Counted from the stretch's first letter, positions 1-64,000 are shown. The stretch is 64,000 bases of DNA from Oscillospiraceae bacterium (GCA_036645935.1 JAVXNE010000001.1:384660-448659), one strand, 5' to 3'. Notes: generated by a model from the sequence alone, not told the origin. Made by a program: numbers and translations.

Positions 1-3000
1 CGATAAACTCGTCTCCGGAAACGCGAAAGACCTTTGCGCCGCTGAACGTTTTATTGAGAACACCCGCTATAAAACTTATCAGCCTGTCGCCGTATTCATT
101 TCCGTAATCATGATTCAGGCGATTCAGCCCATTGATATCAACAAACATCGCTCCGACCGCGAAAAGCGCATCGGTTTTGATGTTTTGCAGCATTCGATAA
201 TAGCCCTGACGGTTGATAAGCCCTGTCCGGTCGTCAATCAAGCTGCGTGATGGTTTATCCTCATGCTTGACCTCCGTCTGCAGCACTGCCTGAAATCCGC
301 TTCCATTATTGTCATTTGAATATACGGTGACGCGCCCGTGCGCCTCCTGGACATCCTTTTTGCAGGCGGCAAGCGCGCTTTGGAACAGCGCGTCGAAGTC
401 GAGATTTTCGCACCGCTCTGCCGCTATTCCAACAGAAAACGCCAACTCCTCGGACATGCCGATAATCTCGCGTATTCGTCGTATATCGATCACAGCGCGG
501 CTGATGATATCAACCACCTCTTTTTGGGTCTTTGCGTGCGGAACAAAAACCGAAAACCGATGCTCGGAGTCTCGTCCGATCATTCCTATTTCTCCCAAAA
601 CGTTGAGAAACAGGCACGCGACTGAATATATCAACCGGCTTTCCACATCCGGTCCCGATTGGTCAAATGCAACGTCAAGTCCCTGCAGCTCTATGAGCGC
701 CAGCGCACAGTATTCATCGCCACTGCTCTCGATGACGCATTTTGCAAGCCGCTCCATCGTTTTCTTTGTGAAGAGCATCGTCGTCGCGTCGCGCTCAGGG
801 TGCGACGGCAGCGCCAGCTCCCAATATTTGCGGGTGTCTATGTCGCGCAGATATCCAAAACCATAGATATCCCCGCTCGCGGAGTCTGTCATGAGCGATA
901 CCGTATTTGACACCCAGCGTATCTCACCCTCATTCATTGTGCGGCGATACTCAACTTCAACAATCCCGCAGCCGCTTTGATATGCGGAAAACAGAGCTTC
1001 GGGTGACATTTTCTTTTTGAATCTCGCAAGATCGGCTTCACCGAATATGGCTTTACCCTCATGTTCCAGGTTTTCGAGATAGCTTTCCCCAACGCGCACG
1101 CGTTCGGCTGTGCCTCTTATGTGTGCACACTCCATCACTTTGTGAGAGATGTTCACCCGCATCGTCGCAATGACGTTGTTCTTCACCGCCTCCTGCATCC
1201 GCTCCTCTTGAATAAATCTCGATTTCTCATTAAAGATGTTGGGAAGCTCGTGCGTCACACCAATTGCCTTGTGCGGTTTCCCGTCCGCGTCATAAACCAT
1301 GTGGTATGAAAGCGTGGCCCAGCCGAACATACCACTTCCGAAATAGCGAACTATAAAGTCCTCGCTTCCCTTTTCTTTCCCGCTAAGTATCCCGTTGAAA
1401 AATTCAATAAACGGCTCACGGTATTCCGGATGCACCCAGCCGTTGTGCGCAAGGCTCTCGGGAGCATTTTCAAAAGTCGCAGATTCATCATATTTTTGAT
1501 TGACAGTGTCCCACACCGCGAAAATGCGCGTGTTGATATCGAACTCCCATATCGTCGCGTCGGTCTGCTCAAAGGCATAGCGCAGACGCTCGTTTCCGTC
1601 GGCGAGCTTTTTGCGCAGCTCGAGCGTCTGTGTCACGTCCATCACCGTTGACAGGAACACCGGGGTTCCTTCTTTGCTTCTATGCATGTAAACGGTGCGC
1701 ACCAAATAGCTGCGCCGCACACCGTCAATCATCGTCGCCGAACGAAAAGTGCTTTGCACCGAAACGCGTTTCTCCGCGGCTTCCGCCAGATTGCCGCACA
1801 GCATCTCGCTATCTTCGGGATATATAATTTTATACATATCGGACGCGTATCTCGCTTCGTACTCTTCTCTGGATAAACCGCTCATTTTGATGAGTTCGTC
1901 GTTTGCGAACGTCAGATGAAGTTTCTCACCCGCCTCACAGACTCCTATTCCGACCGGGGAGTTTTGTATAATGGCGTCCATCTGTTCCAAAACATTCTTC
2001 TGCTCGGTTATATCAGTCACAACTCCGATAACCACCGGATAATTGCTTCTTTCATAGGGAATGCGCACCGCGCGCAGATGACGCCAGCTCAGACTTTCGT
2101 TGGGTTCTTTGACGCGGTATGTGAAATCGAGCACATCTCCGCTGCACGATATCTCCTTCACTTGCTGCTCGAGTTTCTCGCGGTCTTCAGCATAAACAAA
2201 ATCAAACAGACCTTCTCCCGATTCTCTTGCGTCCTCCTTTTTGCGGCCGGTGGATTTGAAGAAACCGGGACTGACGTAAATTATCCGCAAACTATCGCTC
2301 ACTTCCGCGAGCATGACGCCGCCCTCCATGTATTCAAGCAGCGCGTTCAGCTGCACAGTGCTCGCGGAATCGGATGTGAAACTTGTTAGGGAGAGAGCTT
2401 CCTGTGGCTCAACATGAAGATTGTTTGAAATGCTGTAACTGTTTTTGCTCCCGGACTTCACTTGATAAAGCGAGCTGTCCGCCTGTGAATACAGCTCTTC
2501 AAACGTCTTGTCCCCGTGCCGAAAAATCGCAATTCCGACACTTGCGGAAAGTTGCAACGTGACGCTGTTAGAAGCACAGGAAAACTGCAGCGCATGCACA
2601 AGCTCCTCCGCTTTGGATGCAACTTGTCCGACAGATGCAATGTTTTTCATCAAGACCATGAATTCGTCCCCGCCGACACGACCGACAATATCGCTCGAAC
2701 GGAAAATGCGGCTGAAAACCTCGGCAACACGTATGAGAAATTTATCGCCCTGCTGGTGTCCGAATGTGTCGTTTATAAGCTTGAAGTTGTCAAGGTCAAC
2801 GGCGAACAACGCATGGTTTCCGGTGCTTCCCTCCATTTTCATGAATCTGCTGATATGGGAAATTGTGCTGTCGTGATTGTAGCGCTTAGTCATCGAATCG
2901 CGCTCGGCTGCAGCTTCAAGCTTATACTCCTTGCGCTTTTGGTCATCTATATCGGTCATATATAGGAAGGCCATCAAATCCCCGCTCTCGGGATCTCGAA

Positions 3001-5038
3001 GCAGGTGTGCCTCGTAGTGCATCCAACGTGTTTCGCCGCTCGAAATAGCCTTGATAAAATCAAAAATCACCGGTTCAGCATTCACTTCGGCACGTTTTTC
3101 GAGCATCTCGGGAGAAAAAGACGCGAAGTATTTTTTCACATCCTCATTGTCCACAACACTCTGTTTGGAGAGTTGCGCAAACTCTTCAATTGAGAGCCCT
3201 GAAAATTTCTGCTTATCCTCGGGGTTTTTGAAGTGCATGTCGACCTGAACACGAGTGGTGACGTTGAAAAGCGCAGTTGAATAAAAGCTGGGCTCCATCG
3301 CCACGCGGTATTGCTGCTCCGTTTGATATTTCATTTCCAGCTCATGCTCGGACGTTACGTCCTCAGACATCCCAACCGCACGACAGGGACGCCCACGATC
3401 GTCAAGCACATTTGTGTATCTCACAAGCTCGTAGCAATACCCTGTCCCGTCCTCTTTTTTCACACGCAGTATAGCGGAGACCTTCGCCTCACCTGCCAGA
3501 AGAAGTTCATGCATTTCGAGCAGCTCATTAACGCTTTCGGGATGAATACAGCCGCTCTCAATAAGGCTCGCCGGCGCATTGGCCAGTTCCCTGCCGTTTT
3601 TGAGCCATTTGGTGGAATTCTCTGCCTGAATAATTTTTTGGGTCTCGTAATCATATTCCCACACATTGAGTGTGGTGTCTGCAAGCGCGATATCTGTGAT
3701 CTGCTTTTGAACACGAAGCTCCAGCTCGATCTGCTTCTGCTCAGTTATATCGACGATTACACCGCTCATAATCAGATTGTCCGATTGCTTTTCGATATTT
3801 CCGCTCACAAGCAGATATTTGTTGTTTCCGCTGCCGACAACAATACGCACGACGAACTGAGCGTATCCGCCTCCCTCCCGGATGATGTTTTCTGTCGTCT
3901 CTTGAATCATGGCGGCATCATTGCTGTGAACCATGTGCATGAACTTGTTGTCGAACTTCTCAGCCATGCTTTCGCGGGTGCATTCGATAATGGCGTAAAA
4001 CTTGTCGTTTCCGTAAAGCAGAGTGAACTCGCGATTGACAATAGCGGAAAACACGCCGCTTTCCTCCATTGTGCGATAGAGCGCAAGCTGCTTTGAGTGT
4101 CTGCGTTCGTTGACAACGATTAGAGCGAGCAGCAACAAGGAGATAGCCGAAATCCACGCGGTCTGATGCAGTCCATCGCGGGCAGCAGTGCGCGCGTCGG
4201 CATCCACAACTTCTCCCGGGACGATATTGAACATCACCCAGTCCTCAATGCCGGTTTGCCGATAGACCCCGCATCTTGTCTGATCGCCGACGCTGTAAAT
4301 CACCGTGCCCGACTTAAGTTCCGTAATTTCCTGTTTTATCTCTTCGTAACTTCCTCTGGTAAATTCGGCTGTTTTGAAAAACTCAAACAGGTTTTTTTCT
4401 TTTGCAAGATATCCCTCGCTATCGCTGCTGACAATGATGTCCCCCTTAGAATCGGAAATAAAAGAATAGGCTCCTTGGGTGTTCGTTTTGGATATGAGCA
4501 GTGAGCGAAACACTTTCTCCTCATAGAATCCCGCTATCGCCGCAACAACGTCCCTGCCCTTAAAAACAGGAACCGCAATTACAAAAAAATCAGCATCGCC
4601 GAACGGGGAGGAGCTGACCTTTGCGATGGCCCGAGAGCCCTTCATGGCTTCTTGAAAATACGTCTGGTCCTCCATCTGAATGTCTCTTCCATCGCTCAAC
4701 ACAGCCCGTCCATCACGATCTATCTTAATCACGCTCATGAAATCGGTGATTCTTGCTATTGCTTCCATGCGCGTTTCGAGGTGTTCGTCATCAATGTCAT
4801 CCTGCACGGAGAGGCTGTTGGCAAACGACTCCAAAACCGCATACTGCCCACCAATTTCGGCCCTAATCGTGGCAATTTGATTGGACGCCGATTCCTCCAA
4901 CGTGCGATAGGCGCGCGTCTGTGATCGTTCAACCGCACTTCTTTGAAAAAACAGCATGCTGATAAGCGTGACCACAATCAGGAACAGCGGCACAATCACC
5001 AGCACAGCATTATTCATCTTTCCGTCTTGACGTTTCAT
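1..5038 (-). CDS. Partial (>1679 aa) multidomain c-di-GMP signalling protein: N-terminal TM plus extracytoplasmic sensor, second TM, PAS repeats, GGDEF (RVGGDEF) and a second C-terminal GGDEF-like domain (RVSGDEF) at the window edge. The C-terminus lies outside the window.
   Basis: Reverse complement of 2660-2681 reads RVGGDEF followed by MVLMKNI. The ATG at 5038, with a GAGGA SD 9 nt upstream, is in the same minus frame (coordinate mod 3 = 1) as that GGDEF motif and as the SGDEF motif encoded at positions 5-22. No minus ORF in that frame is listed because the ORF is unterminated at the window start. The plus-strand ORFs at 309-4504 are antisense artefacts in high-GC DNA. Confidence 0.6.
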   Translation of the reverse strand, partial: MKRQDGKMNNAVLVIVPLFLIVVTLISMLFFQRSAVERSQTRAYRTLEESASNQIATIRAEIGGQYAVLESFANSLSVQDDIDDEHLETRMEAIARITDFMSVIKIDRDGRAVLSDGRDIQMEDQTYFQEAMKGSRAIAKVSSSPFGDADFFVIAVPVFKGRDVVAAIAGFYEEKVFRSLLISKTNTQGAYSFISDSKGDIIVSSDSEGYLAKEKNLFEFFKTAEFTRGSYEEIKQEITELKSGTVIYSVGDQTRCGVYRQTGIEDWVMFNIVPGEVVDADARTAARDGLHQTAWISAISLLLLALIVVNERRHSKQLALYRTMEESGVFSAIVNREFTLLYGNDKFYAIIECTRESMAEKFDNKFMHMVHSNDAAMIQETTENIIREGGGYAQFVVRIVVGSGNNKYLLVSGNIEKQSDNLIMSGVIVDITEQKQIELELRVQKQITDIALADTTLNVWEYDYETQKIIQAENSTKWLKNGRELANAPASLIESGCIHPESVNELLEMHELLLAGEAKVSAILRVKKEDGTGYCYELVRYTNVLDDRGRPCRAVGMSEDVTSEHELEMKYQTEQQYRVAMEPSFYSTALFNVTTRVQVDMHFKNPEDKQKFSGLSIEEFAQLSKQSVVDNEDVKKYFASFSPEMLEKRAEVNAEPVIFDFIKAISSGETRWMHYEAHLLRDPESGDLMAFLYMTDIDDQKRKEYKLEAAAERDSMTKRYNHDSTISHISRFMKMEGSTGNHALFAVDLDNFKLINDTFGHQQGDKFLIRVAEVFSRIFRSSDIVGRVGGDEFMVLMKNIASVGQVASKAEELVHALQFSCASNSVTLQLSASVGIAIFRHGDKTFEELYSQADSSLYQVKSGSKNSYSISNNLHVEPQEALSLTSFTSDSASTVQLNALLEYMEGGVMLAEVSDSLRIIYVSPGFFKSTGRKKEDARESGEGLFDFVYAEDREKLEQQVKEISCSGDVLDFTYRVKEPNESLSWRHLRAVRIPYERSNYPVVIGVVTDITEQKNVLEQMDAIIQNSPVGIGVCEAGEKLHLTFANDELIKMSGLSREEYEARYASDMYKIIYPEDSEMLCGNLAEAAEKRVSVQSTFRSATMIDGVRRSYLVRTVYMHRSKEGTPVFLSTVMDVTQTLELRKKLADGNERLRYAFEQTDATIWEFDINTRIFAVWDTVNQKYDESATFENAPESLAHNGWVHPEYREPFIEFFNGILSGKEKGSEDFIVRYFGSGMFGWATLSYHMVYDADGKPHKAIGVTHELPNIFNEKSRFIQEERMQEAVKNNVIATMRVNISHKVMECAHIRGTAERVRVGESYLENLEHEGKAIFGEADLARFKKKMSPEALFSAYQSGCGIVEVEYRRTMNEGEIRWVSNTVSLMTDSASGDIYGFGYLRDIDTRKYWELALPSHPERDATTMLFTKKTMERLAKCVIESSGDEYCALALIELQGLDVAFDQSGPDVESRLIYSVACLFLNVLGEIGMIGRDSEHRFSVFVPHAKTQKEVVDIISRAVIDIRRIREIIGMSEELAFSVGIAAERCENLDFDALFQSALAACKKDVQEAHGRVTVYSNDNNGSGFQAVLQTEVKHEDKPSRSLIDDRTGLINRQGYYRMLQNIKTDALFAVGAMFVDINGLNRLNHDYGNEYGDRLISFIAGVLNKTFSGAKVFRVSGDEFI

Positions 5039-5622
5039 TATAAACATCCTCGTTTTATTCCGCCGATTTAATAAACCACCGACCTGTCGCCGCATCTATG
5101 ATGCGATGTTGGAAACACAATTCGCCGGTCTTTCTGGCAAGCGTCTCTTTGCGACAACGGCGTTTCCTGTTGACGGTATACAAAAAAGGAAGACTCTGCA
5201 ATTTTCGACAGCGCCTTCGATCGTCTTCCTTTTTCGTGTAAACAAATTCGACCGGATCCGCGCTCTGCGCGCGGCCTGCCGACAATGTGTCCGGTATCAC
5301 AAAAAAATAACCCTGAAAAGGCAGTGTCTATTCAAGCGGTGTGAGCCGCTCACCGCCACAAAGAGTGGTTTTGCTTCTTTATGGCGCGCGTGCGGCTGTC
5401 TTCCGGCTCGCTGTGATCCTGTCTGCCGGTAGTTTCACAACATTACACTGTTAAAATCCCTGAGGATTGCAATATTGATTGAACTTGATGTTAGTTTACT
5501 TATATTTATATATATTTACTATATATCATGAGATTCATCATTGCAAGCTCTGAAGTGCCTGTTTTAATGGTGTTCTTTACACAAATCTGCTATTTGAACC
5601 GCGCCGTTTTCAGTTTTTCACA

Positions 5623-21462: not shown

Positions 21463-21524
21463 CCAAAAAAAATCCGCCATCTCAATGGGTTGAAGACACC
21501 CATTGAGATGGCGGATTTTATATG
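21463..21524. terminator. Bidirectional rho-independent terminator
   Basis: A8 run, a perfect 19-bp stem (atccgccatctcaatgggt / acccattgagatggcggat) with a 7-nt loop, then a T-run. It sits between the convergent regulator and Hpt genes. Confidence 0.65.
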
Positions 21525-21714
21525 CTTGTTTTGGCGGTGCTGTTTTTAAAAGCCTGCTGGATTTCCTTGTTTCCATAAGTCGCCCTTGCAAACGGCAGAC
21601 ACCACGCGAGACACAGCGGTGAGCTTTTCTTGTCCAATTCACAAGTTCCAAAACCTGCACGGTTTTTATGATTTTTCAGCTCATCTGTTTTTTAGCCGCC
21701 TGAACACCCACGCG

Positions 21715-22059
21715 TCACCGCTGCAATTGTCCCAGCTTGTCCAGTTGCGCAATTACCTCTGTGTAGCATCTCTGCAAGCCTGAATATTCCTTGTTCCTCA
21801 GTTTTTCAACTATGGTGCAGATCACCCGGCTGAGAGGGGTGAGTCCCATATTGCCCGAAACGCCTTTCAGCGTATGTGCGCATTCAAATGCTTTCTCATA
21901 ATCTGTGGCAGACAATGCCTCCCCCAGCTTGAGAAAGGCCTCGTCTTTTAAAAATGCTGTGTAACAGGTTTTGTATAAGTCAACATCGTCCATAAAGCGA
22001 TTCATCGCTCCATCCACATCCGCGCCGTAATCCTTTAGCTCTTCCATCAATTCATCCAT
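21715..22059 (-). CDS. Histidine phosphotransfer (Hpt) domain protein
   Basis: HTLKGVSGNMG matches the Hpt HxxKG...G phospho-histidine motif; 114 aa, all-helical pattern. Confidence 0.75.
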   Translation of the reverse strand: MDELMEELKDYGADVDGAMNRFMDDVDLYKTCYTAFLKDEAFLKLGEALSATDYEKAFECAHTLKGVSGNMGLTPLSRVICTIVEKLRNKEYSGLQRCYTEVIAQLDKLGQLQR

Positions 22060-22553
22060 TTGGGCTATCCTCCTGTTTTTCAGAATCTGCTATAAAGTTT
22101 TAAAAAGCCGATTGAAATCTATGAGCTTTGCAATCGAATATTGCTCATCACGACCAGCGTTCCGAAACACATGCAAACTATATCATCGTTGATCCCGAAG
22201 CCGATGGCCTTGGAGCAGCGCGTCGTCTTTGATATATAGAGCCGGCAGCAGTCTGCCTGCAATACTCTGGATGTCCGCCGGAATCGGTTGTAACCTCAGC
22301 GCGTTGGACAAAACGGACGGCGGTGAACCGCCATGCACTGCAAAATATAATATGCTTTTATTTCTGCTGTTAGGATTAGATCACCGCTTAAATCGGGGGC
22401 ATCGGAACACATGTCGGAGATATTCACGGCCGTGCCGACAAGGTGCCCACATTGCTTCTTTAGATACTTCAGCCGAACGTCCGCAGAATTTTGGGGGCAG
22501 TTCCGCAGATACTCCACTGATGCGGGCAGAACGCTCTCATTTGCACCTTTGCG

Positions 22554-25500
22554 TTATGTGTTGTGATTTTGCAGAAAATTCCGCAGAGTTTGATAGAGCA
22601 GATTCGGCTCTATAGGCTTTGCCAAATGGGCGTTCATGCCGGCGCAATTGGCTTTTTCCATATCTTCCTCAAACGCGTTGGCGGTCATCGCGATTATGGG
22701 AATTGTTTTGGCATCATCACTGCGCATCTGGCGAATTGCCTTAGCTGCGGTCAACCCGTCCATAACGGGCATCTGGATATCCATCAAAATCGCGCTGTAA
22801 TAGTAGGCTTCTCTCTGCGCAAAACTCTCAATTGCCTGAAGTCCGTTTTCAGCGACCTCAACCTCAAAGTTTTTCGCATTCAGAAGTTTTTTTGCAACCT
22901 CAATGTTGAGAGCGTGATCCTCAACGAGTAAGATTCGTTTTCCCTCGAAGTCAAAATTTTCCGGTGCAATCGAAACAGGCTCTTTTCTCTTTTCACTGTA
23001 AATTTTTTCAAGCGCCGAGTAGAGGGACGACTTAAACAACGGCTTTGATATCATCCAATTTACACCTGCCTGTTTTGCCTCCGACTCAATTGCCGCCCAG
23101 TCATACGCGGTCATGATAATAATTGTGACATTCGGGCCGACTATTTTGCGGATTGCACGGGTGGTCTCAATTCCGTCCATGTCCGGCATTCTCCAATCTA
23201 CAATGACAACGTCATAAGCCGCGCCCTTTTCCCACTTGGAACGCACGGACTCCACCGCGCTCATTCCGGAAACCACATATTCCGCCTGCATTCTCATATC
23301 CCACAGAACTTGTTGGGTGTGCCGGCACACGATGATATCGTCATCGACAATGAGGGCTTTGAGTGTTTCAAAATGAATTTGAGATTTTGCCTCAATCGCG
23401 CGTTTACTTGTCTTCGGAATCTTGAGCTTCACCTCAACAACAAATTCGCTTCCGACTCCTTCAATGCTGTTCACCGTGATTTTTCCGCCCATCAAATCAA
23501 CAAGGTTTTTGCATATAGCAAGCCCCAGCCCCGTGCCGCCGTAAATGGATGCCTCTCCCCCCCGCCACTGTTCAAACGGCTCAAAAAGGTGCGGGAGAAA
23601 ATTCTCATTGATTCCGATTCCCGTGTCATTTATGGAAAATTTCATCACGGCTTCATCCCGCGCGATCTTCTCCTGATATATGATGAACTGTACCCTGCCG
23701 CCTTTCGGCGTAAACTTGATTGCATTTGAAATGATATTGATAAGCACCTGTTGCAGCTTCATCGCATCGCCGATATAGGTTTCCTCGGCGAAGCTTGTTA
23801 TTATAGAATCGTATTCCACGCCTTTTTCCTGCGCCTGCGCATGGCAGATGTTGTTTATGCCGCTTATAAATTCTTCAAATGGGATGTTGTCATTGCGAAT
23901 AAATATCTTTCCGCTCTCAATCCTTGACATGTCCAAAATGTCATTTATGAGTGAGAGCAGAAAACGCGCGGAAATTCCAACTTTAGACAGATATTCCGCC
24001 ACCTGTGTCGGGTCATTAACACAGCCCGCCGCCAATGTTGACATCCCTATTATGGCGTTCATCGGGGTTCTGATCTCGTGACTCATGCGTGAGAGAAATT
24101 CGGATTTCGCGGCATTGGCCTGCTGTGCCGCGATCAACGCGTCTCTTAGCGTCTCATTCTTTTGCTGCTCCTCGTTATAGATATTCGTAATATCTGTTCT
24201 TGTGGCGATAATTTTCTTTTTCGCTCTGTCAAGATATGAAAACTGAAGCTTTTTTTGGCTTAAAGCTCCGTTTTCCTCTTTCACTCGGCAATATGTCGTG
24301 AAGACATCGTGCTTCTCCAGCTGTTCAAAGAGATTTTCAACAGACATATCGCGGATATTCTGCTCGATGTCCTCCTGCGCCACAAATTTGTGCGCGTACT
24401 CTGCGACCTCGTCTTTATAGCTGCCGGCGTACATTTGGGGAAGCGGGGTTTTCCCCGCTGTTTTGACATATATTTTGTAACCGTCCGTGATGGCGTCAAT
24501 CAACACCAGGTAGTCGTAGTCCATGTTCACCACTGTGTACACAAGTGCCTGCGATGTCTTTTTTTCATTGATGTCCGTGGCGTAAATATAGGCTTCGACA
24601 TCACGGGTTTTGGGGTTTTGCAACATGTTTGCTTCTATCTTGATCCAGCCGAATCCGTTGTCATTAAAGCTGACATAAGCCTCGCCCGCAACGCTCGTTT
24701 TCCCCTCACGAAAGCATTTCAGCAAGGCCTTTCTGTTAAATGTCTCCCTGTGTTTTTTAAGGTCCTTGTCGTTACTGTGTATGGCATATTCCCTCTCGAA
24801 AAATCCGTCCGCAGTTCCATTCCCCTGAAAGCTTAAAATAACAGGACTGTCGCTTTGACCGTCCTCGCAGGTATTCTGTGTCAGGTTCATCTTGAACGAG
24901 CCAATCACATCTTGATTGTGTACATTTCTCCATTCGATCTCTTCGTTATAGCGCTCTTCCAACCGCATGCGTTCGGTTATGTCCACAGCTGAGCCAATTG
25001 CCTTTATCGGCTTTCCGCTGATATCGAAGATGGTGTTATATGTGATTTCATTCCACCACGAGATGCCGGAATTTAAATTTTTCCAGCGCCCAACGCTTTT
25101 TGCCGTTTTCTCTCCTGCGTAAATTTTCTCATACATTTCAAGACACGCGGGGACGTCGTCCGGGTGCAGGTATCCCTTCCTGACAATCGTTTCGGGAATG
25201 TTTGGAATCGTTGTAACGTTGTTCGGCTCATCAGCGGAACTTGTGAAGTTGTAGATTGTTCTGCTCTCAATATCCAATATCCAACAGGTCAATCCGCTCT
25301 GCTTTGCAGCTTGCATGTACGTCTCCGCAAGTCGCCGATAGACATTGATGTTCTCTGCGATGCCCTTTGCAATGATCGGTCTGCCGCTCTCGTCAAGCTC
25401 GGTGTTATATTGAATTTTTTTCCAGGTTGGAGTGCCTTTTTCATTCACCTGAATTTCCTCGGTGATATGTGCTTCTCCGCGCTTTATTCTCTCGTGTATC

Positions 25501-25745
25501 TGCAGCCATTTTTGAACGCTGTTCTCGCGAATAAACCCCATGTCAATGAGGCTCTGGGGATAATGTTCCCAGTTTTTTGCGCCGCTGAGTTCCTCTGCGA
25601 CGCTCATTCCCGAAACTCCGACGTCACTCACCGGATCATACGTCCAGTACTGTATTCCGCACTGTTTCAAAATCAAGGCAAGTTCCGCTTCCGTTTCCGA
25701 AATATTAGATTGTATCTTATCCCTATCAGCATCTCTCTTATTCAT
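22554..25745 (-). CDS. Hybrid sensor histidine kinase (PAS domains, HisKA, HATPase_c, two receiver domains)
   Basis: H-box SHEIRTPMNAI; N/G1/G2 boxes (NAIKFTP, DTGIGI, GGTGLGL); two REC domains with DWRMPDMDG and LMDIQMPVMDG. The likely start is the ATG at 25745 (MNKRD) behind a GAGG SD. ATGAATAA overlaps the upstream gene's stop, indicating translational coupling. The track start at 25760 is a TTG. Confidence 0.85.
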   Translation of the reverse strand: MNKRDADRDKIQSNISETEAELALILKQCGIQYWTYDPVSDVGVSGMSVAEELSGAKNWEHYPQSLIDMGFIRENSVQKWLQIHERIKRGEAHITEEIQVNEKGTPTWKKIQYNTELDESGRPIIAKGIAENINVYRRLAETYMQAAKQSGLTCWILDIESRTIYNFTSSADEPNNVTTIPNIPETIVRKGYLHPDDVPACLEMYEKIYAGEKTAKSVGRWKNLNSGISWWNEITYNTIFDISGKPIKAIGSAVDITERMRLEERYNEEIEWRNVHNQDVIGSFKMNLTQNTCEDGQSDSPVILSFQGNGTADGFFEREYAIHSNDKDLKKHRETFNRKALLKCFREGKTSVAGEAYVSFNDNGFGWIKIEANMLQNPKTRDVEAYIYATDINEKKTSQALVYTVVNMDYDYLVLIDAITDGYKIYVKTAGKTPLPQMYAGSYKDEVAEYAHKFVAQEDIEQNIRDMSVENLFEQLEKHDVFTTYCRVKEENGALSQKKLQFSYLDRAKKKIIATRTDITNIYNEEQQKNETLRDALIAAQQANAAKSEFLSRMSHEIRTPMNAIIGMSTLAAGCVNDPTQVAEYLSKVGISARFLLSLINDILDMSRIESGKIFIRNDNIPFEEFISGINNICHAQAQEKGVEYDSIITSFAEETYIGDAMKLQQVLINIISNAIKFTPKGGRVQFIIYQEKIARDEAVMKFSINDTGIGINENFLPHLFEPFEQWRGGEASIYGGTGLGLAICKNLVDLMGGKITVNSIEGVGSEFVVEVKLKIPKTSKRAIEAKSQIHFETLKALIVDDDIIVCRHTQQVLWDMRMQAEYVVSGMSAVESVRSKWEKGAAYDVVIVDWRMPDMDGIETTRAIRKIVGPNVTIIIMTAYDWAAIESEAKQAGVNWMISKPLFKSSLYSALEKIYSEKRKEPVSIAPENFDFEGKRILLVEDHALNIEVAKKLLNAKNFEVEVAENGLQAIESFAQREAYYYSAILMDIQMPVMDGLTAAKAIRQMRSDDAKTIPIIAMTANAFEEDMEKANCAGMNAHLAKPIEPNLLYQTLRNFLQNHNT

Positions 25746-28700
25746 TGTCTGCCGCCTCAAATTCCAATCTCATACCTTCAATTTTCGTCACATCAACCGC
25801 AAGCTCGAGATGTGCGGCCATTCCGTTACGGTGGATATTCTTTCCTCGCATTAAAAACACTTGACTCGAGTTCGGCATTTTAAACAACCGGGCATATACC
25901 TTGGATTCCGACATCTTTGACATCGAGCAAAATTCGCATGGCGCGGTTTTGTGCATCAAAAGCTCATAACATTTCTTTCCCCTACACTGTTCCCGCGTGA
26001 CTCCCGCGGATTGGCAGACGCAGTCATTGACATAGAGAAGATCATAGTTATTTCTATCACAGATATAGATTCTGTCGTTAATCGCGTCGAGAACGCTCTC
26101 CGTGTCGTTAATCCACGAGATGATTGAGGTGGTTTCCTGTTCTTCCCCATATATCGAAACCGCATTTTTGCCTTTGCATTTCGCACTGTAAAGCGCCTTG
26201 TCGGCATTTTGATATAGAACTTCAAAGGATCGATTCTCTTCGGTTGAGACCGACATTCCCACAGAACATGTGATCTCGGCGTTTTTGCCGTCGATCTCAA
26301 TTTCCCGCATACTCTTGCACAGCCGGTGCGCTTTATCCTTGATAAGCTTGATATCGGTAACGTTGCAGAGAAACGCGGCAAACTCATCCCCGCCCATACG
26401 TGCGACGATATCCTCTCTCCTGAAAAACGAACGAAGGGTGTCTGCAACTGTGCTTATGACCTTATCCCCATAAGAATGCCCATAAGTGTCATTGAAGTTT
26501 TTAAAATTGTCAATGTCCAGCATCAGCATCACACTCACGTCGCTCGTCTTCTCAAGACTCTGCCTGATTACGGCTTCGGCGCTTGCTCTGTTGAGCAAGC
26601 CCGTCATCAGGTCGGTCTTCACCTGCTCTGAAATGTTAAAATATTCCCTCACCATCTCTTTGAAACGATGATTGGACTCAATGACGTTTGCCACGCGGCG
26701 AGTGACAACCTCCGTAATAAACGGCTTGACAATATAGTCGTTTGCGCCCAAAGACAGCGTGCTGATTTGCTGCTCCGGGCTGTCATCAGCCGTGATCATG
26801 ATGACGGGAATTCCGTCAAACTCGGGGTGTTTTTTCTTATACTGCAAGAATTCTTTCCCATCCATTTTTGGCATCGAAATATCCAGAAGAATCAAGTCGA
26901 TTTTGTTTTGCATTTCCTGCAGCATTTCAATCGCTTCTTCTCCGTTTTCAGCTTCGCAAAACAGAAACTTACCCTCGAGAATTTTCTTTAACACCATTCT
27001 GTTTATCGCGGCATCGTCGACAATCAGCACGGTGTGGGGGTCGTGGTCGCTTTCCAGCAGCGACGTCCTGTATTTTTGAAGCTCGAAATCAATTGTCTTT
27101 CGCATTGTGACGTCGATCAATTCTCCGACTATAATGTGCTTGTTTCCCGTTCCGGAAACGTAGTGCAGCTTCGTGTTAATCCACCGGAATTCACCGTTTA
27201 TTCCGCGCCGCATATATTCGCACTCGCACACATCCTTTGTCTCGACGCAAGCGTTAAATGCATCTGTCAGAAGCACGCAATCTTCCTCTGTCACCAAATT
27301 CAGGATATCAGGCGGCTTTGCCAACATGTCGCCATGGCCCAACAGGTCATAATAAGCTTCATTGACCCTTATCATGTCAACATGTCCGTCTTTGAATTCG
27401 TAAATCGCAGCCGCCTGCGTGCTGTTTCCAAACAACAGCTCCAACTCCTTATTCAGAGAAAACAAATCGTTGTATCGGTAACCGCAATACTTTTTGTTGT
27501 CATTTAACTGGACATCAAACGGCTGTTTTTCGCAAAGCTTATCATAGTCGTCGAGAGACATCGGGCGCGCAAAGTAAAACCCCTGCACGTAGTCACAGCC
27601 GATGCTTCTCAAAAAGTCAACCTGTGCGGCGGTCTCCGCACCCTCAGCAATCACGGGGATATTCAGCCATTTTGCCATGCGGATCACCGACGCGACGATA
27701 TTTTCCCCTCTGCCCGGAATCTCGGTTTTCGCCAAGAAGCGCATGTCGATTTTCAAAACATCGACCTCGATGTCCTTTAACAGTCCCAAGGAGGAATACC
27801 CGCTGCCGAAATCATCCATCATGACCGTGAAGCCGAAGCTTTGCAATTGCGCCATCGTCCTTCTCATCGCGACGGGATTGTCAGAATATGCGCTCTCTGT
27901 CAGTTCCAGGTTCAGAAGGGCCGGTGATACGTTATATCTATCGACCAGCTCAAGCAGTTTCTCGGGAAATTGCGGGTTATAGACATTCACACGGGAAATA
28001 TTCACGGAAATCGGGTATGGTTTTATGCGTCTCGCCGTCCAGCTGCTAAGGCATTTGCACGCCTGCTCCCACACATAGTAATCAAGCTTTGTGATAAATC
28101 CGTTGCGCTCAAACACCGGGATGAATTCACTGGGTGAGAGCACGCCCTTTTGCGGATGCATCCATCTCACAAGAACCTCCGCACCGCACGGCAGATTCGT
28201 GTGAATGTTGTATTGCGGCTGGAAATACACTTCAAACTGGTTGTTTTCTAGCGCATAATTCATATCATTGACGATTTCCTGCGCGTGGGCAATCTCGACT
28301 CTCATGCTCTCGTTGTAATAAGCATAATAGTCGATATAGTTGCCCTTGCAGCTTTTTGCCGCAAGGGTAGCTCTGTTGTACATTTCCTCAACCGAAACCG
28401 TTCTGTCATCCACAACGTAAATTCCAATTGACGGCACAATGTCATAATTTGGATTGTATTTTTCAAGCGTCTCTTTAGAACGCTTGATCATCGATATAAT
28501 TGAGTGTTCGTCATACGGCAGACACCAGCTGAAAACATCGGATTCAATTCTCCCGTAAGTCGTCTTTTCGTTTTTAGCTATATCAGACTTCAGATGATTT
28601 GCAAGATATATGAGCAGGTTGTTTCCCTCTGACATTCCAAAAAAAGAATTGATCAGCTGAAACCTATCAACATCAAAACGGAGAAAGGCGAATGTCTCAT

Positions 28701-29193
28701 CACGATTCGCGTCGATCATCTCACGTGTCGCAGCAAAATAATTTGTCTTGTTGTAAATTCCCGTGAGCTCGTCGTAGTCGGCGAGGTATTTCAGTTGCTT
28801 GAGCGCCGAGAGTTGACTGCGGTCGATTGCGTTTTTCAGCCTGAATTGGATGATTTTAGGGTTATACGGCTTTGAGACAAAATCCCACGCTCCGAGTTCG
28901 AGCGCTTTTATTTCATTGCTGTTGTCAGTATTCTCCGTAGTGACGATAATGGGCAAATTGCCGTAACGCCCGTCGCTCGCAATCGTCTGCAAAAAGGCGT
29001 AGCCATCCATAACCGGCATGATGAGATCGAGCATAACCGCGGCAATTTCTTCCGCACGCCCGCTCAAAATCTCGAGTGCCTCCAGCCCGTTTTCTGCCTC
29101 AAGCACCGCGTATTCTACGGACAATATTTTCGCCAATATCGCTCTGTTAACCTGATTGTCATCAACTATCAGGATTGTTTTCAATGCAGGCAT
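25738..29193 (-). CDS. Response-regulator c-di-GMP enzyme: REC - degenerate GGDEF - EAL - PAS - REC - GGDEF - Cys-rich C-terminal domain
   Basis: REC domains (ILIVDDNQVNR...MPVMDG and VLIVDDAAINR...MPKMDG); EAL motifs (QPQYN, ELTES, KIDMRF, DYVQGFYFARP); GGDEF (RMGGDEFAAF); C-terminal CVCQ...CRGKKC...CEFC cluster. The ATG at 29193 is preceded by an AGAGGTG SD; the track start at 29319 is an upstream extension. Confidence 0.8.
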   Translation of the reverse strand: MPALKTILIVDDNQVNRAILAKILSVEYAVLEAENGLEALEILSGRAEEIAAVMLDLIMPVMDGYAFLQTIASDGRYGNLPIIVTTENTDNSNEIKALELGAWDFVSKPYNPKIIQFRLKNAIDRSQLSALKQLKYLADYDELTGIYNKTNYFAATREMIDANRDETFAFLRFDVDRFQLINSFFGMSEGNNLLIYLANHLKSDIAKNEKTTYGRIESDVFSWCLPYDEHSIISMIKRSKETLEKYNPNYDIVPSIGIYVVDDRTVSVEEMYNRATLAAKSCKGNYIDYYAYYNESMRVEIAHAQEIVNDMNYALENNQFEVYFQPQYNIHTNLPCGAEVLVRWMHPQKGVLSPSEFIPVFERNGFITKLDYYVWEQACKCLSSWTARRIKPYPISVNISRVNVYNPQFPEKLLELVDRYNVSPALLNLELTESAYSDNPVAMRRTMAQLQSFGFTVMMDDFGSGYSSLGLLKDIEVDVLKIDMRFLAKTEIPGRGENIVASVIRMAKWLNIPVIAEGAETAAQVDFLRSIGCDYVQGFYFARPMSLDDYDKLCEKQPFDVQLNDNKKYCGYRYNDLFSLNKELELLFGNSTQAAAIYEFKDGHVDMIRVNEAYYDLLGHGDMLAKPPDILNLVTEEDCVLLTDAFNACVETKDVCECEYMRRGINGEFRWINTKLHYVSGTGNKHIIVGELIDVTMRKTIDFELQKYRTSLLESDHDPHTVLIVDDAAINRMVLKKILEGKFLFCEAENGEEAIEMLQEMQNKIDLILLDISMPKMDGKEFLQYKKKHPEFDGIPVIMITADDSPEQQISTLSLGANDYIVKPFITEVVTRRVANVIESNHRFKEMVREYFNISEQVKTDLMTGLLNRASAEAVIRQSLEKTSDVSVMLMLDIDNFKNFNDTYGHSYGDKVISTVADTLRSFFRREDIVARMGGDEFAAFLCNVTDIKLIKDKAHRLCKSMREIEIDGKNAEITCSVGMSVSTEENRSFEVLYQNADKALYSAKCKGKNAVSIYGEEQETTSIISWINDTESVLDAINDRIYICDRNNYDLLYVNDCVCQSAGVTREQCRGKKCYELLMHKTAPCEFCSMSKMSESKVYARLFKMPNSSQVFLMRGKNIHRNGMAAHLELAVDVTKIEGMRLEFEAADNE

Positions 29194-29371: not shown

Positions 29372-29596
29372 TCACTGTTTGCGATCGGTCCTTTTGCGAT
29401 ACTTTTCTGAAAACCCGATATATTGTCCGGTCTTTATTCGCGCATCTGCGGGCTTTTCCGCATTTTGTGGAATTGCCCAAACCCCCACGAATCGGGTTGC
29501 TCCCGGTATACGCCCTTCAGCACACAACGTGTAGACACGTCTTGAGCTGATTCCCCATCTTTTTGCAGCCTCTGCCACGGAAATATAATCTTCCAC
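29372..29596 (-). CDS. Small HTH DNA-binding protein (excisionase/MerR-like HTH_17 family), GTG start
   Basis: EDYISVAEAAKRWGISSRRVYTLCAEGRIPGA is a typical HTH_17 N-terminus; 74 aa. Confidence 0.5.
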   Translation of the reverse strand: MEDYISVAEAAKRWGISSRRVYTLCAEGRIPGATRFVGVWAIPQNAEKPADARIKTGQYIGFSEKYRKRTDRKQ

Positions 29597-30267
29597 GCCA
29601 ATCCTTCTTTCTTTGCCATATATCTGCTTTAGATTATAAGCCGCCGATGGAATGATGTCAATAAAAATACAAAATACGCCTCATTAACACAGCTCTCCTG
29701 CGGTGCATACCTTTTTTGCGGTGTTCACAGCTCAAGGCGACACATTAATACACCACACGCAACGTTGTGCGCGTCCGTGGGCAAAAGAGGAAGGTTGCAC
29801 TGCGATTCTGTCATAATTTTGCTTGCTCAAACGCGCTGCTTTCACAATATATCTGTTTATTTTCAATTGCGGGATCTTTGCACCCCGTCACGAACCATCG
29901 CACAGCCTCATGAGAGTAACCGCTATTCTGCAGAGTATTTGCACCTTCCCGCGACCTTACGGGGAGAATTGTTCCAATTTAAAAAACGACTGCGCCCGTC
30001 AATCTCAAGCTCAGTCCTTTTTGTGACAGCCATGATAATTGGGAAAATTCACATGGGCGCACATTGAGTCCACAATCTCACTGTTGACACACGATCTAAT
30101 ATCTGCCGGATAAGGGGAAGCATCTGATTTCGACTTGATTGGTCTATGCTTTATATCCAAGGAAAGCCCCCACGCCGGTATCTTCTCTTCCTCCCGAATG
30201 CACCATGCAATGATGATGGGATAAAATCACATCATCAATTTGATTATCTGTTCATCACGCTCAATAA

Positions 30268-33755: not shown

Positions 33756-33832
33756 TGGTGCGCCAGAAGGGACTCGAACCCCCGACCTACTGGTTCGTAG
33801 CCAGTCACTCTATCCAGCTGAGCTACTGGCGC
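33756..33832 (-). tRNA. tRNA-Arg (anticodon ACG) with an encoded CCA end
   Basis: Minus-strand sequence GCGCCAGTAGCTCAGCTGGATAGAGTGACTGGCTACGAACCAGTAGGTCGGGGGTTCGAGTCCCTTCTGGCGCACCA folds as a cloverleaf with a 7-bp acceptor stem, GGTTCGAGTCC T-arm and anticodon loop CTACGAA. Confidence 0.85.
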
Positions 33833-55329: not shown

Positions 55330-56270
55330 GCGGTCGATAGCCGGATTGCAGTCATCGGTGCGGGCTTTCTCTCTCTCGTGGGATTTCTCTCTCTCGTGGG
55401 CTTTCTCTCTCCCTCGCGGGATTTCTCTCTCTCGTGGGATTTCTCTCTCCCTCGCGGGATTTCTCTCTCCCTCGCGGGCTTTTTCGCTCTCTCGCGGGAT
55501 TTCTCTCTCCCTCTCGGGCTTTCTCTCTCGTGTGATTTCTCTCTCCCTCTCGGGCTTTCTCTCTCGTGTGATTTCTCTCTCCCTCTCGGGCTTTCTCTCT
55601 CGTGTGATTTCTCTCTCTCGTGGGATTTCTCTCACGTGGGGCTTCTCTCTCGTGGGCTTTCTCTCTCCCTCTCGGGCTTTCGCTCCCTCGCGGGACTTCT
55701 CTAGCGTGGGACTTCTCTCCCTCTCGGTTTTTCTCTCGCGTAGGCTTTCGCTCCCTCGCGGGTTTTCTCTCTCGCGTGGGTTTTCTCTCTCGCGTGGGTT
55801 TTCTCTCTCTCGTGGGCTTTTTCGCTCTCTCGTGGGCTTTTTCGCTCTCTCGTGGGCTTTTTCGCTCTCTCGTGGGCTTTTTCGCTCTCTCGTGGGCTTT
55901 CTCTCCCTCGTGGGACTTCTCTCTCGTGGGACTTCTCTCTCGTGGGACTTCTCTCTCGTGGGACTTCTCTCACGTAAGGCTTCTCTCTCACGCAGGTTTT
56001 CTCTCTCTCGTGGGCTTTCGCTCCCTCGCGGGACTTCTCTCTCGTGGGACTTCTCTCACGTGGGGCTTCTCTCTCACGCGGGATTTCTCTCTCTCGTGGG
56101 ATTTCTCTCACGTGGGGCTTCTCTCTCCCTCTCGGGCTTTCTCTCTCGCGGGATTTCTCTCTCCCTCTCGGGCTTTCTCTCTCGCGGGATTTCTCTCTCC
56201 CTCTCGGGCTTTCTCTCACGTGGGGCTTCTCTCGCGCGGGACTTCTCTCGCGCGGACAATTTTCTGACGC
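55330..56270. repeat. About 940-bp degenerate tandem minisatellite, pyrimidine-rich on the plus strand (units TCTCTC-TCGYGGG-MTTTC of 15-21 nt; higher-order periods 36 and 20 nt)
   Basis: Read directly from the sequence. Almost no A on the plus strand, so five of six frames are open, giving ER-rich (REREIPRERKPE) or SL-rich low-complexity ORFs. Confidence 0.85.
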
Positions 56271-63722: not shown

Positions 63723-63907
63723 GGCTTCTCCTCCAGTTTGTGGCAGCTGCGACCGCGTTACCGCGAATGTCAGTTGCCGCGCCGCTTGGGCTCCACGCGA
63801 CCTCGACGCTTTGAGTCGTCGCCGTGCGTTTTCCAACTTCACCCGCTTGTACTTGATTCGTGCTTTTACACCGTTCCATTTTAGGGCTGTTCACTGCTCT
63901 CTGGTCT

Positions 63908-64000
63908 GTTCTTTGGTCTGGCTCTTTGGTCTGGCTCTTTGGTCTGGCTCTTTGGTCTGGCTCTTTGGTCTGGCTCTTTGGTCTGGCTCTTTGGTCTGGC
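63908..64000. repeat. Tandem repeat of a 14-bp unit (CTCTTTGGTCTGGC), at least 7 copies, running off the window end
   Basis: Read directly from the sequence. Confidence 0.8.

Follow-up and report, generated by a model that had tools for sequence, protein, structure and literature searches.

His-Asp-His-Asp phosphorelays that end on enzymes of c-di-GMP (cyclic dimeric GMP) turnover are represented by RpfC-RpfG, RocS1-RocR and Hk1-Rrp1, and in RpfC, RocS1 and Hk1 the histidine phosphotransfer (Hpt) domain is fused to the kinase. In Cph2, two different light sensors each rule one catalytic half of the protein, and both activities, synthesis and breakdown, have been reported in vivo (PMC10124867). 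The receiver-GGDEF-EAL regulators Lpl0330/Lpl0329 of Legionella pneumophila, RavR and Lpg0277 are cited as having dual activity, with a kinase encoded alongside (PMC11841396). Within the Rec-GGDEF class, Teixeira et al. found that linker lengths are spaced by multiples of seven, and that phosphorylation shifts the register of a coiled coil, bringing two GGDEF domains together (PMC8041772). In the hybrid kinase ShkA, the first receiver is a c-di-GMP-binding pseudo-receiver without an acidic pair, and c-di-GMP faces competition from a DDR motif of the Rec1-Rec2 linker (PMC6969517). Here, we describe a three-gene cassette (21715-29193, minus strand) within a 64,000-nucleotide stretch of DNA from an Oscillospiraceae bacterium (GCA_036645935.1, JAVXNE010000001.1:384660-448659), hereafter the window, which encodes a c-di-GMP enzyme with two receiver (REC) domains, a hybrid histidine kinase and a stand-alone Hpt protein. 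Its sequence makes it probable, though by no means certain, that the cassette is a cytoplasmic multistep phosphorelay setting c-di-GMP turnover.

The enzyme gene comes first, followed by the kinase gene and, after a spacer of 494 bp, by the Hpt gene. The enzyme gene (25738-29193, minus strand), whose ATG is preceded by a good ribosome-binding site, the Shine-Dalgarno sequence AGAGGTG, encodes a protein of 1151 residues, for which the open reading frame (ORF), Pfam and an AlphaFold2 model give the order REC1-GGDEF*-EAL-PAS-REC2-GGDEF-PAS, GGDEF* denoting a degenerate GGDEF domain. Pfam recognizes in it two Response_reg and two GGDEF domains, EAL at residues 309-544, PAS_3 at 608-686 and a C-terminal PAS at about 1032-1111; in the model, built on a 17-sequence alignment with a mean pLDDT of 78, all seven domains are folded. 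The kinase gene (22554-25745, minus strand) encodes a soluble hybrid histidine kinase of 1063 residues, and its start overlaps the stop of the enzyme gene by 8 nt (25738-25745, minus strand), such that within the junction GACAATGAATAAG the TAA of the enzyme and the ATG of the kinase both lie inside the octamer ATGAATAA. The Hpt gene (21715-22059, minus strand) has its own ribosome-binding site, AGGAGG, before the ATG and encodes a protein of 114 residues that matches Pfam Hpt. An earlier note made from the sequence had described this gene order with its coordinates, the overlapping junction, the 494-bp spacer (22060-22553) and the free-standing Hpt protein, and on all these points the ORF and Pfam calls agree with it. 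Its domain list was right in every domain named but overlooked the C-terminal PAS of the enzyme, and its placing of one receiver ahead of the EAL half and another ahead of the GGDEF half agrees with Pfam. It did not remark on the solubility of the two large proteins or on the family to which the enzyme belongs.

A His-Asp-His-Asp relay was taken to consist of a His in the H-box of a kinase, a fused receiver with an acidic pocket, Asp, Thr and Lys, the His of an Hpt HxxKG motif, and a terminal receiver with the full quintet of conserved residues, and such residues are found at all four stations, namely H556 in the kinase, D850 and D989 in its receivers, H62 in the Hpt protein, and D56 and D771 in the enzyme. 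The complete phosphorelay previously proposed is thus present as a set of parts with intact key residues. The kinase begins with a PAS-like sensor region (residues 1-535; 24141-25745, minus strand), with weak Pfam PAS hits at 191-259, and continues into the kinase core (23421-24110, minus strand), in which HisKA occupies residues 546-612, with H556 in SHEIRTP, and HATPase_c residues 659-775, followed by two Response_reg domains. Receiver A (residues ~796-915; 23001-23360, minus strand) carries D801, D802, D850, T879 and K901, with M898 at the aromatic switch position, and its D801, D802 and D850 are conserved in 14 related kinases; receiver B (residues ~936-1058; 22572-22940, minus strand) carries E942, D943, D989, T1021 and K1043, with H1040 at the aromatic switch position. 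The H62 of the Hpt protein, which stands in AHTLKG, is invariant in 23 homologues. Both REC1 (residues 4-122; 28828-29184, minus strand), with D11, D12, D56, T86, F105 and K108, and REC2 (residues 720-838; 26680-27036, minus strand), with D726, D727, D771, T801, Y820 and K823, keep the full quintet, including the aromatic switch residue (F105 and Y820). Terminal allosteric receivers are reported to conserve the aromatic switch position, which varies among intermediate receivers (PMC9981736). The presence of M898 and H1040 in the kinase versus F105 and Y820 in the enzyme would fit a division of labor in which the kinase receivers hand the phosphate on and the enzyme receivers respond to it, although this is not a strict rule.

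The phospho-acceptors of the enzyme are widely retained, D56 in 76 of 85 family members and D771 in 62 of 65. In alignment A1, Gly replaces D56 in the REC1 of P0090, and the REC2 of P0114 has Asn for D771 and Glu for K823; pseudo-receivers therefore arise within the enzyme family. Membrane anchoring of the kinase or the enzyme was rejected, since no hydrophobic segment was found in either protein (maximum KD19 of 1.35 for the kinase), and the system would therefore sense an intracellular signal.

The enzyme is not a one-off but a member of a large, conserved and uncharacterized family of Clostridia: its full length is shared by more than 100 sequence clusters at 44-70% identity, and a family form of ~1020 residues lacks only the last PAS. 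Megasphaera sueciensis (CP116939) and Roseburia inulinivorans are among the carriers of family members. All three proteins of the cassette are found identical in metagenome-assembled genomes labelled Oscillospiraceae bacterium, where their annotation goes no further than 'EAL domain-containing protein' for the enzyme, 'response regulator' for the kinase and 'Hpt domain-containing protein' for the third. The architectures within the family are graded, from REC-GGDEF*-EAL through successive additions of PAS, PAS-REC and PAS-REC-GGDEF to the PAS-REC-GGDEF-PAS extension of the window protein. For the analysis of gene neighborhoods, 80 related loci were taken from one-genome-per-species contigs and scanned with profiles from the window and its relatives, and the linkage counts cover the 56 of them with adequate flanks. 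An Hpt homologue is located near the enzyme in 19 of the 56 loci, where it invariably shares the strand of the enzyme gene and in 16 adjoins it directly; a same-strand hybrid kinase is nearby in 22, and either a kinase or an Hpt in 29. The linkage also holds in the reverse direction. Among six Hpt homologues on long contigs (43-57% identity), four adjoin a family enzyme, a fifth has three hybrid kinases around it and the sixth is an orphan, so that five of the six stand beside hybrid kinases or the enzyme. The overlapping enzyme-kinase junction is kept in relatives at 47% identity and recurs in loci L002, L005, L010, L011, L013 and L016, while the closest Hpt-bearing relatives (L013, L016 and L018) share the order enzyme-kinase-kinase2-Hpt. 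An Hpt fused to the linked kinases of other loci was considered and rejected, as Pfam finds no fused Hpt domain in the four linked kinases tested; a separate Hpt would therefore be needed for onward transfer. Given that an Hpt is likewise found next to family members devoid of REC2 (L061, L071, L079 and L091), REC1 is the one partner common to all Hpt-linked enzymes. These comparisons, which do not discriminate between the two receivers of the long form as phosphate acceptors, are good evidence that the kinase, the Hpt protein and the enzyme work together, as far as gene linkage can indicate it, and the connection of the three drawn in the earlier note is thereby backed from the enzyme side and from the Hpt side.

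The same neighborhoods bear on a classical two-component wiring, in which the His of the kinase DHp domain would phosphorylate one or both enzyme receivers directly, leaving the kinase receivers and the Hpt protein as a side branch that acts as a phosphate sink or feeds another regulator. Such a wiring would fit the overlap between the genes for the enzyme and the kinase, the fact that the two are kept side by side even in distant relatives, in many cases where no Hpt is close, and the 494-bp separation of the window's Hpt gene, whereas it accounts poorly for the finding that nearly all linked kinases are hybrid and conserve receiver B, and for an Hpt-enzyme family linkage that is strong, reciprocal and often adjacent without an intervening kinase; we regard direct transfer as rather unlikely.

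Several related loci differ from the cassette in composition. A shorter form of the enzyme, REC-GGDEF*-EAL-PAS-REC, with no output domain after REC2 and often with an Hpt directly downstream, is encoded in L025, L031, L033, L036-L042, L047 and others, and the REC2 of this form might be a relay intermediate or a phosphate sink rather than an output switch. In L090 (3414-18345), L091 (3663-12570) and L092 (1-9363), the Hpt gene is embedded among kinase genes, as many as four per cluster and in part encoding SBP_bac_3 sensor domains, and two of the three clusters also carry a REC-GGDEF-EAL enzyme, an arrangement that suggests a funnel from many kinases to one Hpt. The same genome as the window cassette holds a paralogous module (L005; GCA_036651515.1, JAVVXR010000002.1; 7001-16431), composed of an enzyme (P0018, 64% identical), a two-receiver hybrid kinase and a second PAS hybrid kinase, with no Hpt gene after them; the Hpt protein of the window may serve both the cassette and this module.

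The spacer (22060-22553, minus strand) holds no recognizable gene, RNA family or kinase remnant, and contains a weak promoter-like site (22373-22344) and a small GC hairpin (22334-22317). Rfam covariance models, including that of the c-di-GMP riboswitch, give no match in 22060-22553, and the only Rfam hits are weak microRNA-family matches caused by a terminator hairpin (21463-21536) beyond the Hpt gene. A riboswitch or structured leader was rejected on the lack of an Rfam match and a fold z-score of +0.58, a small protein gene because only short unsupported ORFs are present, and the remnant of a second kinase gene as untraceable, since neither blastx nor blastn matched the 494 bp to anything in the full set of ORFs and loci. 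Likewise, no homologous sequence was found by blastx or blastn in any related locus.

The earlier note had also pointed to three spacer motifs as a possible regulatory site. Three copies of TCCGCAGA do exist (22480-22587, starting at 22480, 22502 and 22580), but only two lie in the spacer, the third being inside the kinase coding sequence. Their density, three copies within 108 bp versus four in the whole 64-kb window, is near chance level, as 15% of simulations of a 64-kb window yield some 8-mer clustered in three copies within 110 bp; on the sense RNA, a hairpin can form between the two copies in the spacer via G-U wobbles, and the z-score of this region is -1.78. The significance of TCCGCAGA as a motif is consequently regarded as unsupported, and so is the proposal of a regulatory site, given one coding copy, near-chance clustering and no homologous spacers on which conservation could be judged. 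These observations also bear on the idea that the Hpt protein is an unrelated neighbor and the TCCGCAGA cluster an operator for a separate Hpt regulator. The concentration of copies in 108 bp and the strong ribosome-binding site of the Hpt gene speak for such a separate unit, yet the linkage of Hpt to the enzyme family is conserved, one copy is coding, clusters of this kind are seen in 15% of simulations, and the spacer has neither a homologue in related loci nor significant RNA structure or an Rfam family, which together leave this idea highly improbable.

With regard to the phosphodiesterase half of the enzyme, the EAL domain (residues 309-544; 27562-28269, minus strand) matches Pfam over the full profile with an E-value of 5e-68, and its best PDB matches are MorA, DosP, RbdA and RocR. 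Catalytic competence of such domains was judged by the E of EAL/EVL, an R, an E, an N, the ExxE of ELTE, the DD of loop 6 (DDFG(S/T)GYSS), the K and D of KID, the ExxE of EGxE and the Q of QG. This set is complete (E339, R343, E362, N398, E430, E433, D460, D461, K481, D483, E517, E520 and Q537), all 13 positions are invariant in 87-88 of 88 relatives, and the domain is thus predicted to be a competent c-di-GMP phosphodiesterase. The GGDEF-like domain in front of it (residues 138-300; 28294-28782, minus strand) had been described as degenerate, and alignment by profile with the second GGDEF domain, the check then suggested, shows this to be so: E217-S-D-V-F221 falls under GGDEF and AKNE under RxxD, so that the domain has no RxxD and lacks the GG(D/E)EF signature of an active cyclase. 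Relatives throughout the enzyme family conserve this degenerate form as GR(I/M)E(S/A)D. D174, N182, K280 and K283 are kept and near-invariant in the family, and we take them to be putative equivalents of nucleotide-contacting residues in PleD and PdeA; position 191 is N in the window protein and D in 75 of 88 relatives. In PdeA and RbdA, GTP binding to the degenerate GGDEF domain reportedly stimulates the EAL domain. This domain may plausibly act as a GTP sensor, or as a relay to the EAL domain that is structural only. In the AlphaFold2 model, α5 of REC1 runs unbroken as helix 112-139 into the degenerate GGDEF domain, where a canonical DELT turn is found, and the linker from K108 to D141 spans 33 residues, two more than in DgcR.

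The cyclase half starts with the middle PAS (residues ~590-700; 27094-27426, minus strand), called as PAS_3 and modelled with PAS-type strands and helices, and proceeds through REC2 to the second GGDEF domain (GGDEF2; residues 859-1016; 26146-26619, minus strand). The criteria applied for an active cyclase were GG(D/E)EF, a DxD metal site, N/D guanine contacts and K/R phosphate contacts, with RxxD five residues before GGDEF as the I-site. GGDEF2 has the wide turn DLMT at 861-864, D893, D895, N901, D902, the GGDEF signature at 934-938 and the tail KALYSAKCKGKN, and most of its metal and substrate residues are conserved in 31-39 of 41-42 relatives. The I-site, R925-R-E-D928, is followed by IVARM and then by GGDEF, with the R conserved in 36 of 44 relatives and the D in 41 of 43. 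The domain aligns with PleD, DgcR and WspR, and by these residues it would be an active diguanylate cyclase. The linker was examined by the rule that the number of residues separating the KP motif of Rec and the DxLT turn equals that of DgcR plus 7n, with hydrophobic heptad positions (PMC8041772). From K823 to D861, it counts 38 residues, exactly seven more than in DgcR (alignment gaps of 4 and 3 in DgcR), and is hydrophobic at every seventh residue (V830, V837, F844, Y851 and V858); α5 of REC2 is predicted to continue unbroken as helix 827-858 into GGDEF2, and the REC2-GGDEF2 linker thus follows the DgcR/WspR lattice.

Alternatively, the enzyme as a whole may be one-directional, a regulated phosphodiesterase in which REC2-GGDEF2-PAS makes no significant amount of c-di-GMP and is a regulatory appendage, sensing c-di-GMP or GTP, or a phosphate sink. 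The invariant core of the family is indeed REC1-GGDEF*-EAL, with the EAL residues kept in 87-88 of 88 relatives, and many members end after the PAS or REC2 without a second GGDEF; given those in which REC2 has no output domain, REC2 can therefore have a role other than driving a cyclase. We nevertheless consider a one-directional enzyme doubtful because the GGDEF signature, the metal and substrate residues and RxxD are intact in the window protein and in most long members, the REC2 linker obeys the length rule of active Rec-GGDEF proteins, and in Cph2, which has the same output topology, both domains are active (PMC10124867).

The C-terminal PAS (residues ~1032-1136; 25786-26100, minus strand) gives PAS_9, PAS_4 and PAS_8 hits and adopts a PAS fold in the model. 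It has the pattern KKCYE..x..PCxxC...HL, and C1075, C1086, C1089 and H1128 are invariant in 12-13 of the 13 members that carry the domain. In the model, these residues occupy the elements (helices, loop and last strand) by which the cofactor pocket of PAS domains is usually bordered, which suggests that the Cys3-His set may be a metal, Fe-S or redox site. A LOV domain was rejected, as the alignment with YtvA is at chance level (E-value of 1.2) and the flavin-contacting R and Q are absent, and so was a c-type-heme PAS, the motif being CxxC-S and not CxxCH. No close solved relative of this domain was found by sequence.

In the proposed phosphorelay, a cytoplasmic signal received at the PAS-like N-terminus of 535 residues would trigger autophosphorylation of the kinase at H556, from which the phosphate would pass to one of the kinase's own receivers, most likely receiver B at D989, because this is the type common to all linked kinases. 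It would then move to H62 of the Hpt protein and on to the enzyme, where REC1 is the most likely target, since no other domain is shared by every Hpt-linked family member, and REC2 is probably phosphorylated too. Phosphorylated REC2 would activate the cyclase by a DgcR/WspR-like shift of the coiled-coil register, limited by product binding at RxxD, whereas phosphorylated REC1 would alter EAL activity through the degenerate GGDEF domain with its putative GTP-contacting residues. The net making or breaking of c-di-GMP would then be set by which receiver is phosphorylated and by the two PAS inputs. The phosphorelay as such is well supported, in terms of sequence, by conserved reciprocal linkage and intact residues, and a phosphorylation-driven switch between synthesis and breakdown is a plausible inference and a reasonable hypothesis.

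A number of observations weigh against this picture. The Hpt gene lies 494 bp from the kinase gene, with the weak promoter-like site and the small hairpin in between, so that co-transcription is putative; about half of the related loci have no kinase or Hpt nearby, and several kinase-bearing loci (L002, L005 and L007) have no adjacent Hpt. The tight overlap of the enzyme and kinase genes fits direct His-to-Asp transfer equally well. Moreover, the REC1-degenerate GGDEF linker falls outside the DgcR lattice (31 + 7n), despite the unbroken helix 112-139, and simultaneous phosphorylation of both receivers would lead to a futile cycle unless one of them is inhibitory.

A broader version of the phosphorelay can be put forward only tentatively: Clostridia of the gut and of anaerobic digesters may share a dedicated Hpt subfamily, as yet unstudied, through which several cytoplasmic hybrid kinases converge on REC-GGDEF*-EAL enzymes, and in the long form one Hpt would feed two receivers of different affinity, with low flux leading to one activity and high flux to the other, the Cys3-His PAS acting as a gate and the Hpt being shared with the L005 module. 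If receivers of two affinities were indeed at work, a single input would be converted into a bidirectional or pulse-like c-di-GMP output.

Around the cassette, a terminator-like hairpin (21464-21524), with arms of 27 bp and, on the minus strand, a T run after them, stands between the Hpt gene and a convergent LacI-type gene and is likely the terminator of the cassette, common to both. On the other side, 178 bp upstream of the enzyme gene, lies a gene for a 74-residue HTH_17 (excisionase-like) protein (29372-29661, minus strand), which is preceded by a perfect TTGACA-17-TATAAT promoter (29661-29633); no terminator is predicted before the enzyme gene, and read-through from this promoter could drive the cassette. 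Among the relatives, L002, L005 and L007 were examined, and none has a called HTH_17 gene upstream of its enzyme gene. A 68-residue Mob_Pre fragment, a TraX gene and a tRNA gene are situated further upstream (L001 2068-4449, ~34.7-37.1 kb of the window; window 33759-33832) and hint at mobile-element remnants near the locus.

Three other features of the window are apart from the cassette. At 2-5095 (minus strand), a second very large c-di-GMP protein of more than 1698 residues, with dCache, GGDEF, PAS, PAS and a further GGDEF domain, runs off the window edge. A degenerate tandem array of ~47 copies of the 18-nt unit GGGATTTCTCTCTCTCGT, with 75% matches, occupies 55362-56249 inside overlapping ORFs without a Pfam match, and its six-codon period suggests a repetitive coding region. 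Finally, a 13-nt tandem repeat, GCTCTTTGGTCTG, present in 8 copies with 95% matches (63896-64000), reaches the end of the window.

Among the strictly anaerobic Clostridia that prevail in gut and digester communities, c-di-GMP signaling has received little study, and a literature search returned no characterized family member in Clostridia or Lachnospiraceae and no two-receiver bifunctional enzyme. The cassette offers a widespread and wholly soluble module of one or more hybrid kinases, a dedicated Hpt and a REC-GGDEF*-EAL enzyme, whose long form is a compact test case for a two-receiver protein that would choose between making and destroying a second messenger. It is of moderate interest, chiefly to specialists in second-messenger signaling in anaerobes. 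Although the cassette is conserved and uncharacterized, every part of it and its general wiring have precedents, and it represents no new kind of biology.

Each of these precedents matches a part of the system. Like the relays ending on RpfG, RocR and Rrp1, the cassette has a hybrid kinase, an Hpt module and a receiver controlling c-di-GMP turnover, and RocR (REC-EAL) is itself among the best matches of the EAL domain; in contrast, the relays of RpfC, RocS1 and Hk1 act on output enzymes of a single activity. Lpl0329-type proteins differ in having one receiver and one GGDEF domain and in being phosphorylated directly by the kinase, with no Hpt step. Phosphorylation is said to lower only the cyclase activity of Lpl0329 (Levet-Paulo et al. 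2011). The GGDEF*-EAL pair of the enzyme best matches the structures of MorA and RbdA, but proteins of the MorA/RbdA/PdeA type have PAS or membrane input where the enzyme has a receiver, and the enzyme has Asn at position 191. On the kinase side, ShkA-ShpA-TacA shares with the cassette the order core-Rec-Rec and a separate Hpt protein (PMC6969517), whereas receiver A has an intact acidic pocket and the linker between the receivers, EKRKEPVSIAPENFDFEGK, contains no DDR; c-di-GMP feedback of the ShkA type through a pseudo-receiver was rejected on account of this D801, D802 and D850 pocket and the missing motif. REC2-GGDEF2 aligns end to end with DgcR and WspR and shares with their class a continuous α5 linker helix (predicted for the enzyme), a turn of the DxLT type (DLMT, where DgcR has DVMT) and GGDEF with RxxD, the enzyme's linker being seven residues longer than that of DgcR; what sets the enzyme apart from the DgcR/WspR/PleD class is that this module forms part of a larger protein, with a phosphodiesterase half in front of it and a Cys-rich PAS after it. 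At the level of domain layout, the closest analogue appears to be Cph2 (sensor-GGDEF*-EAL-sensor-GGDEF), in which a first sensor, a degenerate GGDEF, an active EAL, a second sensor and an active GGDEF succeed one another as they do in the enzyme. Cph2 belongs to another phylum, lacks both a C-terminal PAS and any kinase or Hpt partner, and carries GAF/phytochrome and cyanobacteriochrome light sensors where the enzyme has receivers; the enzyme would be the phosphorylation counterpart of the two-color light logic of Cph2.

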